62,355 nucleotides of DNA, taken from a virus (Duplodnaviria; Heunggongvirae; Uroviricota; Caudoviricetes). Position numbers: made by a program. Numbering within the stretch: position 1 is the first letter of the stretch; each line of letters opens with the position of its first letter. Below are positions 6,001 to 15,000 of the stretch, in pieces. The stretch lies in IMG/VR virus record IMGVR_UViG_2534682166_000005; one strand, written 5' to 3'.

Positions 6001-9000
6001 ACTGATTGTTTTTGCGATTTGCCGCTGGGGGTAAAATAGTTCACCTGCATGGAGATTTGATGCCGGGGAATTGTGGGGAGCATTCAAACCTCTCCCCTTC
6101 CCGGTTAAAGACTCCATTGCTTTGCGGTCAGAGAGATACATCAGCTTCATCAGCTTAATGAAACGCATAGATCCGCCATGCTTTTTCAGCAAATACGCTG
6201 CCATTTGCGCAACTTTTTCTTCATTAAACATAAATCGGCTCTCTGTCTCACATGAAATACTCTTTCTGACTATATGTTAATAGCTCCGGTTATTACAGGT
6301 TAATGTGTGTTTATTTCTTAATCAGCCCCGCACTTCCGTACGGGGCCATTTCTGTTAATCCACTCCCACTTTTTTGTTGTACTCGCGGTTAAACCGATCC
6401 ACGGCAACCTTCATATCCCGCTCTACCGATTTCACCATCGCCGCCTGCTGCGCCAGACTGAGAGAACTGTCGGCATAAATGGCATCGCGCTGTTTGCGCA
6501 AATCCTTCAGTCTCTTCCGGGTATCCTGCATAAGCCCGTTCATCAACAATTTTCCGTTGTTCTCGTCAATGAACGCCGTTCTTTCTGCACCGGTCAGACT
6601 CTTCAGCTCTGCGTGATACTGCGCAACCTCTGTCATCCGGTCGTACATCTTCTGCTGGTCTGCATACGGCATCACCTCACCCGAAATTTTCCCCAGGAAG
6701 GGCACCTGCTGTTCCGGTATATCAATACCATTCAGCGATTTCACCGCCGCATCCGTGGTTTTGGAAATGAAGCGCCCTGTCCCTCCGGAGATATAGTCAA
6801 TCCAGAATTTCAGCGATTCCGGTGTGATATCCACCGCGCCGGGACGATACTGGCTGCCACCTGAGAACGCATTCAGCCAGAATGCAAACGCCTTGTACGC
6901 TTCTGGCGTTGAACGTCTTCCCAGCTGGCTGTCAGGTTTTGGTGTACCAAACGGCATGTTCTCCTGGTAAATCTGCGCCCCCATGAAGTTTTCGTTCATG
7001 GCAAGATTCGCAAACGGACGCAGAATTGTCGGTGCTGCATTTTTCAGCAATGCCCCGGACAGCGTTTCCGACGTCTCACTGCCAATCGGGCTGAATGCCC
7101 CCAGGATACCACCGACAACATTACCGGCAGCACGGGACGCCGTCAGGTCACCAGCAGCCACACCTTCAGAGGTATGCCCGAGCAGGAAGAAAACGTTGTA
7201 CCCGTAAGGCAGAGGAATACTCCAGTACTCTCCGGCCCTGCCCCCGAACATCGATTTCATAATGACGAGGTTACGCTCTTTCACATGATACGGCACCTTG
7301 TCGTACCAGTTAACCCCGTCATCATCCTCACCCGCCACACTGCGGTTAAGCGAGCCAAGCAGATAACCCGCTCCCACAGCTGCAAGCGCGATTTTCTGCG
7401 GTACATTGAGATTCTTCCAGCGAAGGCGCTCCAGTAACGGCCCGTCGCCATTAAGATGTCCGAGCGTTCTCACCAGGTTTGCGGTCCCCTGAATGCTGGC
7501 GTTGGCAAACATATACAGCGAGTTCATCAGCGCTCCCTGCTCACCACGACGGTTAAAGTTCACCGTCATGTTTTTGGCAAGAGATGCCGCCTGCTGGCGT
7601 GACAAACCGGCATCACGGGCGTGTTTATAGGCAGAAAGACGCAGAGCGTTTTCAACCGCGCCGTTGGCATCCTCGACCAGGTTCAGGAACGAATGCCATG
7701 CACCGATACTCTGGCCTTTCCATCCGCCCTTCGCCAGCGACACAAGGCGATCCATTTCCTTCTGCTGGCCTTCAAGGTCACCCATGTTAAACCAGCCGGT
7801 TTTACCTCCGTCCTCAACAAACTCTTTCCACACTTTCTGCCACTGTGCGCCTTTGCCCGTGAGGGTTTTACCCCGCAGACTTGCGTATACGGCTGACATG
7901 GCGGAACGGCTGTCTTTCACCACAGCCAGCGCGGATAAGTTATCCAGCCCTTTCAGTTTGCCGTCGCTTCTTCCCTGCTCAGCCTTCAGGTTCATCACCG
8001 CAGTCTGCACGTCACGGATGAAGTTACTGACCAGAAATTCCGGGTTATACGACGTGTTCACCGTTGCCAGGAAGCGGTTAACTTTCCCCAGCGTACGGAT
8101 TACGGCGTTACTGGTTTCCGGCCCCATGTTCTTCATCGCACGCATCAGGCGCGGATCATGAAGTTTAATGTAGTAAGTTTTGCCGTCCTTTTTGGTGGTG
8201 AAGTAGCGATCCGCCATCATTGCCATCGGCACAGGGCGCTCGACAACTTCGCGAATGGTTTCACCAGTTTCCTGGTCCTTGCGCTCTGCAATCACACGCA
8301 TTGTATCCGGTCTGTCATCAGTGAATACCTGCCAGTAATCCTTGTCGGGATTATCCTGTACCAGTTTCAGGAAGGCGTTACCCACTTCATTTTTGCGATT
8401 GCGGATCAGCGATTCACTCAAATCCTGTATCGCCTGAGTGGAAGGAGACTGTGCGCGGGATGCACGCCCCATGGCCTGCTTACTTTCACGCCCGCCGATG
8501 GTGAATCCCTTGCCTGTACGTGGCTGTGACACCACACCGTCAACATCCTGCCCTTTCAGGGGGACGTAGTAACGGTAGGCTTTCTGCCAGGCATCCACCA
8601 CGCCGCTCTCTTCCAGTCCTGCCTCACGGATAATCTCACGGCGACGGGCCAGCATATCGTCAATAATCCCTGCCAGACGGTCATACTGTGCCTGTTTGCC
8701 GCTGTTACGCACACGCTGCATGATTTCCGCCGCTTCCGCGTTGGTCATCCCCGAACCGCCGTCCGGCATTTTCGGGTTGATTTTCGCAATATGCGCGTTA
8801 CGTTCCGGCGCGTGACGGGCGTAGAGGTACTCATCCAGATCGGCCTGCGCAATTTTGTAGTCCGCCAGCAATTTGGCCAGCGGCTGAACGTAGCGCTCCT
8901 TCATTACGTTCAGGTCGTTTTCCGCCTTCCCGTGGAAGAGTTCTTCAGCCATATAGGCGTTATTGCTGTCATCTATTTTTCCGCCAGTTTTACGGATATT

Positions 9001-12000: not shown

Positions 12001-15000
12001 AAAGTCTTCAATTTTCGCACCACGCACCTGCTGGTGAGTGCTCGGTTTATCTACCGGCACCGGCACCTCAGTATCCGGAACATCGGTTATGGTCTGGCGA
12101 TTATCCCCGGTCTGTCTGCGTGCTTCTGCCTGCTGTGCCAGTTCCGGAAGGGAGTCACGAACCATACGAGGGAGTGATTCAGGCTGTGGCATATCAACCC
12201 CACGCTGACTTTCAGGTGCAGGAAGTCCTTCACGCACTGGTGCTGTGGCGTTCTGCTCATCCGGTGACGGCAGACCACGACGAACTGTTTCGCCCTCCAG
12301 TATTTCCCCCTGGCGACCAGCGGCATTTTCCGGTGCCTGCTCACGTCCTTTCTGGAAACTCTGGCCCTTCACCTCACCGGTTGTGGTAAAACGACCACCA
12401 CGTCCGGCCTGATTTTCATCCGGCGTACGCGCCACTTCTCCTGGTAACGGATATCCCTGTCCGGGATGAATATCGCCGGGAGCGGGAAGGCGTGGACGCT
12501 CAGTTAACTCCTGTGCTGTCGGACCGGCATCACCTTCAGCCATCTGGGAACGCACCAGTTCTTCCGCCGTCGGCGCGTTGCCACGGGCAAGACGGGCCTG
12601 CACTTCTGTATCATCCCCCGTAAAACCACGGAATCGCGGGTCACGCATGAACGCGGGCTGTTCCATCGGATCAGCATCAGTAATACGCTCTCCGTCAGCC
12701 AGAGTGTTAATGGTCTCCGTTGCCACATCTTCAGAGAACGCAGGATTATCCATTTCAACGGCATACTGATTCTCGCCTTTCTTCACTACGGACGGTTTCA
12801 GGCCGGTGGCGCTGGCATTGCGGAAAACGTCGCTCCCCAGAGCACTTTTTTCATCCGTGAAATAACGGTTGTCCGGACGCACCTTTTCAATGCGTTCTGC
12901 TGGTCTGGACGCACCACTCTCGTTAATTTCAATACGAACTTCATCCGGATCGCGGAACCGCACCGTCGGGTAAATACTCCCGTCGCCATCATCCGCATTT
13001 TCCGGCTGTGGCTGTGCCTCCGGTCTGGCCTCCCGCTGAGGGCGAAGCACATCACGTATTGCCTGTAACTGCTGCTCTTCAGTATCAGTACGCCCTTCCT
13101 TCTGGCTGAGTTTTCGGTATTCCTCAAGCAGTTCAGGGCGCGGCTTCGCCTTCAGCTCATCCATCACCGCCTGTCGCTTCGCCTGTTCATCCAGTTCATT
13201 CAACAGCTGGCTGGCGGCTTCCCGGCGATGAACGGCAGACGTGTCTCCCTCATGTGCCATATCCGCATCAGCATACTGTTCCAGAAGCTGCTCGCGATTC
13301 ATCCCCTGCATAGATTCACGATGCTGTGCCACCGGATCAACCGGTTCGGGTTGCGGAGCCGATTCGTCCTGAGGAACGCTTTCAGCCTCACGCATGGCTG
13401 CTTCATCTGCCGCCTGACGTTTTCCACGATATCCGGCAGCCGCACCGAATGGTGCCCCCATTGCAGCACCAAGGGCTGCACCTTCGATCGTTGCGTCAGC
13501 CACGCCCTCCCACGGTGACACATCCATTCCGGCGGTCTCACGCAATGCCGTGTTTTCCTGATAGCGTGAATAGCCACCCTGCGCCGCATTAATCGTCCCC
13601 TGTTCCGTGGCATTTCTGACAATGCCGCTTTTAACGGTCTTCGCCGTGCCCCGCATCGCCAGATTAAGCAACTGAGCATCGCCCAGTTTTGCCGCCATGG
13701 CATTCACAGCCAGCAATTCAGGATCGGTTGCCAGTTGCGCACGCACCTCATCGGCAACACGCTCTTTTGCCAGGTCCATTTTCTGGCGGTCAGTAAGCTG
13801 CGCGTGCTGCGGATCTGCATCAATTGACAAAAAGGTCTGCTGAAATTTCGGTGACTTCGCCAGCTCAGAATAATCCGCGTTAAGAACAGCATCTGCCGCT
13901 GCCATTGCACTCCGCCCTTGCGCACTGACAGTGGAATGGGTGATCAGGCCTGCCTGGAAAAAATCCGGCATTTTTTTATCGACAGCTTCGGCTGCCAGTG
14001 CTGTGGCTCTTTCCGGCTGCATCCCTGCCGCGATGTATTTTTTCTCCAGCCCGGCGGTCAGCACTTTTCGCAGAGTGACATCACCCAGCTTTTTAGTCAC
14101 ACCGCCTGCAACCATATCCGGTACAAGCGCACCAATCAGGTTAACCCCTTTCGCTACCCAGACCGCTGAATCATCATATCCTTCAGTCATCGGTGTATTC
14201 AGCGCCCGCTGCGCCCCCGGCGACATCTTGCCAGTCAGCCATTCATCCGAGGCTTTAGCGCCGCCACTGACTGCCTTGCCTGTGACCTTCAGACCTTTAC
14301 CGACAGTATCAGTAACCGCATTTTTTCCATCAGGCAGAGTGTCGATGACCTCATCCGCCCCCTTGCTGCCACCGACAAAAATATCCTGAACAGTTGCTAC
14401 TCCCGGCAGCCCCATACGGCTGAACTCATTTAAAATACGTGCCCCTGTTTTTACCGGGCTCTGAATCATCGCATCACCGAGTCCACGGGCCATTTCCCCT
14501 GTCCCCCGGACGGACTGGGCGACACCTTTCCCCATAGTTGGCAATACATCGCCCAGGCTGAACGACGTGCTGTTGTCCTTCCAGCGATTGGGATCGGAGA
14601 AAAACACATCATAGCTGTCAGTCTCTCCCGGCTGCTGAATGTTCAGGCTGTTGCGGCTCTGGTTGCCAAATTGCGCTTCAGGGCGCTGTTCATCGGAATA
14701 AGCCATACAGACTCCATAAAAAAACCCGGCACAATGACCGGGTATCAGGAAATAGTATTAACGGGAATGGTGAATTACTGCGCGTAATTCTGTTTCAGAC
14801 CACGGATAAACTCAGATGCAGAGGCCGCGCTATCATCCCTGGCCTGTTCCCCCCTGGCCTTTTGAATACGGAGAAAATTCGCATACCCGTGTTCCAGCAA
14901 TTTCTGATTCTGAGGCTCCAGCATTTCTGGCTGACGGGAGGCCACTTCTCTGGCAAATGCCTGCTTATCCGGATCATCACCCGCCCAACTGGTAATCCCT

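Follow-up and report, generated by a model that had tools for sequence, protein, structure and literature searches.

Why should a short-tailed temperate phage carry, at the end of its virion genes, a gene for a protein of 2783 amino acids (aa)? The question is raised by a 62,355 nt stretch of viral DNA (IMG/VR record IMGVR_UViG_2534682166_000005; 'the window' denotes this whole stretch), in which a minus-strand open reading frame (ORF) runs from an ATG at 14706 to a stop at 6355, contains no internal stops and cannot be extended further upstream. The product, referred to below as the giant protein, is probably the large internal ejection protein of a phage of the 933W/phi24B type, an analogue of the N4 gp50 carrier that bears a cargo other than a polymerase. 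The gene itself is already known and widely sequenced, and its family, domains and virion location are in the literature; new here are a corrected domain map, a second family-wide zincin module, a cysteine-free ejection block and the profile homology of two scaffold modules to the virion RNA polymerase (vRNAP) of phage N4.

Genomic position and presence of relatives in virions

The giant gene has counterparts of 90-96% DNA identity in 186 phage records, every one from a 933W/phi24B-type Shiga toxin (Stx)-converting phage or a related Escherichia coli or Shigella podophage (Sepvirinae). Its orthologues include ST933Wp72 of 933W, gp35 of Stx2-86 and gp47 of phi24B, with DNA identity of ~96% and lengths of 2783-2811 aa; the first two are annotated as 'LPD5 domain-containing protein', and a match to PHROG 616 (unknown function) spans the full length. 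Position, domains and an upstream hairpin are the same in these orthologues as in the window, whereas the alleles are mosaic, the LPD5 region being only 46-68% identical and the first 150 aa 56-66% identical to those of PhiR12_3. Stx-converting phages create new Shiga toxin-producing E. coli, and the giant gene makes up ~14% of their genome.

The original prediction, made from the sequence alone, described one long uninterrupted ORF at the end of the morphogenesis operon. Both statements hold, the genes upstream on that strand being those for tail fibre, nozzle and other virion proteins, but the span that it gave, 6355-14743, ends too high: the upper coordinate takes in the hairpin, and the ORF proper stops at 14706. 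The giant gene is the last large gene of a minus-strand virion run that includes genes for the lateral fibre, nozzle, needle, Lom and small virion proteins, and downstream of it there is a single 91-aa ORF, followed by convergent early-region genes. The same position as the last late gene is found in six distant phages, Stx2-86, 933W, GP4, BcepIL02, Vibrio D66 and Bacillus Pascal; in all four of the relatives whose neighbourhoods were inspected (D66, GP4, BcepIL02 and Pascal), the virion module ends with the giant gene. The 91-aa ORF in the window (5956..6231, minus strand; phrog_3658), which is cysteine-free and lies directly downstream of the giant gene, is the true final ORF of the strand run.

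The evidence for a place in the virion comes from the literature on the 96%-identical phi24B orthologue, and on Burkholderia phage JC1, rather than on the phage in the window. In the phi24B preprint (bioRxiv 10.64898/2026.04.10.717836), only the capsid protein surpassed gp47 (2811 aa) in peptide counts, of which gp47 had 10,962; the signal for gp47 was highest in the uppermost gel slices, which indicates that it is mostly intact, and 11-35 copies per virion were estimated. Some 40% of the particles in the phi24B preparations had been emptied. The same study found gp47 absent from all cryo-electron microscopy and negative-stain densities, and its authors proposed an encapsidated ejection protein. 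Phage JC1 has a Bcep22-type giant that shares the C-terminal module described below, and this protein was identified in CsCl-purified virions.

These data bear on whether the giant protein might be a conventional tail, tape-measure or fibre component. The gene is large, adjoins tail genes and encodes a long low-complexity region, as such a component might, but other proteins explain the whole podovirus tail in the phi24B map (bioRxiv 10.64898/2026.04.10.717836), no tail or tape-measure family of Pfam or PHROG matched, and the two HExxH motifs of the protein, which a tail component would carry by chance, are invariant in distant homologues, the number expected in the giant protein from its composition being 0.039. 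The domain-by-domain profile searches and structure predictions that the original prediction had called for returned Pfam polyvalent domains and AlphaFold2 (AF2) models, not a tail protein. Conservation and fold data together refute the tail reading, to which we attach next to no probability.

Homology of the N-terminal block to N4 virion RNA polymerase

Homologue sets, AF2 models and local profiles resolved the giant protein into seven parts, the first being an N-terminal block (N-block; Table 1). A hidden Markov model of this block matched the N-terminal domains (NTDs) of the vRNAPs of EcP1 (3.6e-19), N4 (1.6e-15, aa 230-590), JWAlpha (4e-8) and V21 (1e-6), and hhalign aligned the two over 205 columns with a probability of 98.6% (E 1.2e-15). 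Three hundred locally shuffled N4 segments scored no more than 4.6 bits against 52.3 bits for the real one, and a reciprocal profile built from vRNAP NTDs only matched the GP4 and BcepIL02 giants at ~1e-10. The N-block and the vRNAPs have in common a hydrophobic helix, the motifs SP-x-[FY]-QQ and E-G...QG...Q-N, and a terminal glycine zipper. By these comparisons, the N-block is homologous to the lipid-binding NTD of N4-like vRNAPs, which suggests that it too may anchor in a membrane. Profile comparison also related the HExxH subdomain to CTD-C1 of the N4 C-terminal domain, with a probability of 88.9%.

For the N4 NTD, insertion into nanodiscs is known and formation of the inner-membrane complex has been proposed, with its hydrophobic helix as the predicted membrane-spanning segment; CTD-C1 carries an HExxH motif; the C-terminal region of the DEV counterpart binds the periplasmic tunnel protein; and the whole chain is thought to pass a ~35-Å channel as 'beads on a string' (PMC13434306, PMC13492108, PMC11445570). 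A low-complexity linker of ~100 aa follows the N4 NTD (PMC13434306), and the linker of the giant protein is its positional counterpart. N4 gp50 and DEV gp71 have the module order of the giant protein: a membrane-associating N-domain, a low-complexity linker, a cargo, an HExxH subdomain and, by size, position and helical content, an all-alpha C-terminal body of ~1000 aa. They also share the lack of cysteine, the place of the gene last after those of small cysteine-free virion proteins, and invisibility in the virion maps of T=9 podophages. In contrast to N4 gp50, the giant protein lacks an RNA polymerase domain, no T7-like single-subunit domain having been found in it, and its cargo consists of LPD5, a CLCA_X-type zincin and MuF-C. 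The phage in the window also differs from N4 in being temperate and lambdoid and in using the host RNA polymerase.

The N4 vRNAP had already been tied to the polyvalent proteins through a metallopeptidase (MPTase) domain, in a study whose searches with the N4 N-terminal region recovered only related phages (Iyer et al., 2017). In the literature that we searched, we found no link of the vRNAP N-domain to the giants of Stx phages, GP4 or Bcep22.

Cysteine avoidance and the upstream genes

Not one of the 2783 residues is a cysteine, for which P is ~6e-17 at the 1.33% frequency of the other proteins in the window; the 933W protein has two. Avoidance extends across the family: the 64 giants with an N-block (see below) contain 6 cysteines in 183,719 residues, and there are none in the giants of GP4, D66, BcepIL02 and Pascal or in their upstream partners, in seven vRNAPs, or in N4 gp51 and gp52. 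Cysteine suppression has been published for the ejection operon of Schitoviridae (N4 gp52-gp51-gp50 and DEV gp73-gp72-gp71) and attributed to passage through the oxidizing periplasm.

In the window, the giant gene is the last of five adjoining genes for proteins that lack cysteine (218, 150, 83, 421 and 2783 aa), whose order and sizes recall N4 gp52-gp51-gp50. The phi24B homologues of three upstream proteins (421, 161 and 260 aa) were detected in virions and not placed in the map (bioRxiv 10.64898/2026.04.10.717836). The only protein that BLAST relates to the 421-aa product is Vibrio D66 gp20.

The 83-aa ORF of this block (16051..16302) terminates in a long glycine zipper, GTGIGTGAAMGAAVGGLPGAAIGAVIGGIAGSLF, and its Stx2-86 homologue is annotated 'bacteriocin'. 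The phi24B homologue was dismissed as a low-signal contaminant (bioRxiv 10.64898/2026.04.10.717836); the product could be a small membrane-inserting ejection protein.

A proposed model of ejection

We propose the following course of events; that the protein is ejected, anchors in the membrane, binds partners or acts as an enzyme is in each case what we infer. The giant protein would be made late, from the late transcript, by the gene that ends the virion operon, and some 10-30 copies of it would be packed inside the T=9 head with small cysteine-free proteins. Once the tail needle is released, it would be expelled through the portal-nozzle channel with three or four of the small cysteine-free proteins encoded upstream, threading the tail largely unfolded or in segments. 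The N-block might then anchor it at the inner membrane while the C-terminal half engages the conduit, and the cargo domains may reach the cytoplasm early in infection for host takeover, counter-defence or self-processing. The role proposed here is that of T7 gp16 and P22 gp7-gp16-gp20, internal head proteins that exit via the tail and lengthen it so that it spans the envelope; no similarity to these in sequence or fold was detected, and the giant protein is far larger, has an enzyme-like cargo and lacks a transglycosylase domain.

We place the ejection role first and the effector cargo second on the grounds of scaffold homology to N4 vRNAP, the lack of cysteine and a gene block that resembles an ejection operon. 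Several observations weigh against this assignment. Ejection into the cell has been observed for no member of the giant-protein lineage. Classical transmembrane helices are absent from the giant protein, in which the maximum Kyte-Doolittle value is 1.38 and none reaches 1.4. The C-terminal module (C-module) shows no sequence similarity to N4 CTD-C2 (hhalign probability 0.6%), and its profile missed the N4 vRNAP sequences in the PDB set. The estimated copy number, ~19 of a 310-kDa protein with an uncertainty factor of 1-3, is much higher than the 4 +/- 1 of N4. Finally, the 150-aa and 421-aa proteins have no PHROG in common with N4 gp52 and gp51 at E-values up to 1; the N4 partner proteins are not detectably related to those upstream of the giant gene, so that the operon parallel is one of order, size and cysteine avoidance only.

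The C-module and CTD-C2 agree in size, position and helical content; each is a helical body of ~105-110 kDa for which no structural relatives are described. The C-module model (pTM, the predicted TM-score, 0.79) is a single helical body, with uncharged helices at aa 2390-2412, 2435-2457, 2494-2513 and 2526-2543; the mean confidence (pLDDT, predicted local distance difference test) was 82.7 for this model and 80.5 for the other AF2 model. Foldseek searches of the PDB with both models gave nothing significant (best E 0.18-0.5), a weak negative for the C-module as N4 vRNAP entries may be absent from the structure library. Similarity to helical transporters in Foldseek was rejected as generic, and phmmer and profile matches in PDB sequences (huntingtin, Mediator) reflected low complexity only.

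Placing the giant gene in the frame of N4 vRNAP and DEV ejection turns 'function unknown' into a specific, testable model. The model predicts that the N-block inserts into lipid, that the C-terminal half binds the 421-aa protein and that the giant protein leaves the capsid with the DNA. Changes at H1274/E1275 or H1541/E1542 are expected to separate scaffold from enzymatic functions, and effects on host range or counter-defence are best sought in the variable LPD5 region and MuF-C.

Cargo domains and alternative roles

Four Pfam domains matched above their cut-offs, LPD5 (aa 1047-1190), LPD1 (1351-1430), MuF_C (1740-1829) and LPD38 (2466-2671), and the remaining regions received no Pfam name even at relaxed thresholds. 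Inside LPD5, an Arm-DNA-bind_4 match (E 9e-4, under the Pfam cut-off) and weak Foldseek matches to PUR-alpha-like proteins were not used as evidence. The coordinates of the main features are collected in Table 1.

Table 1. Parts of the giant protein and neighbouring features of the window
Feature	Window position	Residues of the giant protein	Strand	Properties
N-block	13342..14259	~150-455	minus	weakly hydrophobic helix (aa 181-203), SPKFQQ motif, terminal glycine zipper (aa 409-426)
Linker	12037..13341	~456-890 (~430 aa)	minus	low-complexity, charged, Pro/Gln/Glu-rich by composition bins; no Pfam match
DFGEEIKGA motif region and LPD5	11137..12030	~893-1190	minus	hypervariable part of the cargo
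MuF-C/PBECR domain	9190..9606	~1701-1839	minus	RelE/BECR-like RNase-toxin fold
C-module	6358..9150	~1853-2783 (~105 kDa)	minus	nearly all alpha-helical; contains LPD38 (6694..7311)
Hairpin and run of seven T	14718..14743		minus	GC-rich, 6-bp stem, 8-nt loop; immediately upstream of the Shine-Dalgarno sequence
Upstream cysteine-free block	14775..17417		minus	candidate partner ejection proteins
218-aa gene	16761..17417		minus	0 Cys
150-aa gene	16312..16764		minus	0 Cys
83-aa gene (glycine zipper)	16051..16302		minus	0 Cys
421-aa gene	14775..16040		minus	0 Cys

The original prediction drew attention to an HEWFH motif as the signature of a zincin-like metallopeptidase, and this has been borne out. 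The segment ALAHEWFHSLDNYFG was confirmed, and its HEWFH occupies aa 1274-1278 (window 10873..10887), between LPD5 and LPD1; in the AF2 model, which has zincin folds as well as a RelE-like fold, the motif lies within a helix (1272-1288). In 52 homologues below 55% identity, H1274, E1275, H1278, D1281, E1365 and E1372 are invariant, and the NCBIfam CLCA_X profile (NF041907) aligned end to end with aa 1172-1427 (E 3e-45), at 154.5 bits, under the curated NCBIfam cut-off of 260. CLCA_X unites predicted zincins from phages and plasmids, relatives of the CLCA protease domain, which cleaves itself (Lenart et al., 2013), and the widespread phage-type MPTase of Iyer et al. (2017), in which a His ends strand 2 and an Asp lies three residues past HExxH, a pattern that the site follows, is equivalent to it. 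The family is known from predictions only; in the window, the domain forms part of a giant polypeptide and is joined to LPD5. By residue conservation and profile match, then, the HExxH at aa 1274 is a genuine conserved zincin-type metallopeptidase site, with a predicted enzymatic activity.

Where the composition of the protein (39 His, 198 Glu) leads to the above expectation of 0.039, two HExxH sites are seen, the second being HEIIH at aa 1541. This second zincin module, missed by the original prediction, is more widely conserved than the HEWFH module, which is an optional cargo present in about one third of the relatives.

The MuF-C domain (Pfam PF18819) scored above its cut-off and has a BECR/RelE-like fold in the model, in agreement with Iyer et al. 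(2017), who placed MuF-C among the BECR RNase-like folds. Its H1742 and the serine of an ASVYG motif, candidates for the catalytic His and Ser/Thr, are conserved in 40 homologues. MuF-C is not the metallopeptidase, and the zincins lie elsewhere in the protein, which corrects how the domains were assigned in the one experimental study of it. That study (bioRxiv 10.64898/2026.04.10.717836) calls MuF-C a metallopeptidase and states two lengths for the protein, 2811 aa and '>3,000 aa'.

With several unrelated effector or LPD domains, two zincin modules and a gene among the late virion genes, the giant protein belongs by domains and gene position to the polyvalent proteins, the class to which Iyer et al. 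(2017) assigned proteins of this kind. The original prediction of a 'polyvalent virion protein' is supported by the Iyer et al. (2017) domains LPD5, LPD1, MuF_C and LPD38 and by the recovery of the phi24B orthologue from purified virions. An anti-defence role is possible; on this reading, the protein would be an effector injected with the DNA mainly to neutralize restriction or other immunity, with the zincins cutting it into active pieces. The domains are those of the polyvalent class, for which autoprocessing by the MPTase has been proposed (Iyer et al., 2017), and the LPD5 region and MuF-C diverge or swap alleles between otherwise near-identical phages, as expected of arms-race interfaces. 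PHROG 10089 ('DarB-like antirestriction') matches aa 2344-2671, but this label stems from the common C-module (LPD38), with no antirestriction domain behind it; the methyltransferase and helicase domains of BcepIL02 gp70 were not detected by Pfam in the giant protein, which does not conform to P1 DarB either. Extensive processing before ejection is at odds with the mostly intact state of gp47 in phi24B virions. As a description of the cargo, anti-defence is compatible with an ejection protein, and the two compete only over the primary role, where we consider anti-defence doubtful.

A third proposal, made by the phi24B authors (bioRxiv 10.64898/2026.04.10.717836), is that the metallopeptidase cleaves peptide links of peptidoglycan and the ejected protein builds a periplasmic channel. 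Podophages need a wall-breaching activity, and the homologues in GP4 and BcepIL02 have an N-terminal SLT domain that the giant protein lacks (no SLT or lysozyme match in Pfam, relaxed thresholds included), so something else might supply the function. The zincins, in turn, resemble protein-cleaving enzymes of the MtfA, lethal factor, CLCA and ArdC types, not known peptidoglycan peptidases, and a wall-digesting conduit seems to us improbable.

The wider family and its variable modules

In tblastn searches, the C-module was found at the C-terminus of several giants in other phages: ~100 Vibrio phages (e.g. D66 gp21, 3066 aa; 40% identity in the C-module), Ralstonia GP4 gp68 (3224 aa; 27%), BcepIL02 gp70 (4667 aa; 27.6%), a Bacteroides phage (24%) and the Bacillus podophage Pascal (gp19, 1672 aa; 22%). 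A word-indexed search with the N-terminus gave only enterobacterial copies; the wider family was seen by exhaustive search with aa 1-460, in which the N-block was N-terminal in 64 proteins of 1370-4665 aa. The C-module profile detects 30 of these 64, the rest carrying a tail of similar length, and MuF-C is present in about a quarter of them. GP4 gp68 (L002 7104..16778) and BcepIL02 gp70 (L004 2733..16736) begin with an SLT lytic transglycosylase, which is followed by the N-block; together with their counterparts in Bcep22 and JC1, they make up the 'DarB-like antirestriction' giants of 3224-4667 aa.

We would give an even chance to a broader reading, in which the N4-like vRNAPs and the giants of 933W/phi24B, GP4, Bcep22 and Vibrio D66-type phages have all diverged from a single ejection chassis. 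This ancestor would have combined a lipid-binding N-domain with a flexible linker, an HExxH subdomain and a large helical C-terminal body, and differing cargos would have been inserted into it. The cargo would be an RNA polymerase in N4, a transglycosylase, methylase and helicase in Bcep22, and LPD5 with the CLCA_X zincin and a RelE-like domain in the window. If so, Stx phages would inject enzyme-bearing proteins of ~300 kDa into E. coli at every infection, and the hypervariable LPD5 region would be a host-interaction determinant that affects which strains they can lysogenize.

Close alleles from Stx phages agree at 94-100% identity in the C-module and in both zincin cores, as against 46-68% in the LPD5 region. 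MuF-C occurs among enterobacterial prophages as two alleles that are ~41% identical, within flanks that are 90% identical. The variable LPD5 stretch (~11257..12157, aa ~850-1150) looks like a hot spot of recombination or diversification.

Apparent stand-alone C-module genes in Amphritea (L016 10001..12946) and Sphingopyxis (L017 41..2749) proved to be truncations, one a prophage remnant beside int, xis and exo and the other cut by a contig end. Stand-alone C-module carrier proteins were rejected accordingly: P0157 has lost its upstream part, the prophage around it having decayed, and P0207 starts 40 nt from a contig end. One E. coli protein of 1578 aa (P0121, not flagged as partial) has only LPD5, MuF_C and LPD38 and may be an internal-deletion variant in some prophages.

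A conserved hairpin upstream of the giant gene

The hairpin and T run that the original prediction placed before the ORF are present and conserved. The sequence reads ACCCGG-TCATTGTG-CCGGGT at 14743..14724, with seven T at 14724..14718, followed by GGAG (14715..14712, the Shine-Dalgarno sequence), 5 nt and the ATG at 14706. A generic terminator scan of the region gave 8 sites versus 10.6 in shuffled sequences, and hence no excess. The hairpin is kept in 933W, Stx2-86 and phiSTEC1589, and in PhiR12_3 its stem is preserved by a compensatory change; it is because of this conservation, and not because of the scan, that we regard it as a selected element. Lying between the 421-aa gene and the giant gene, it could attenuate read-through, stabilize the mRNA 3' end or set the stoichiometry.

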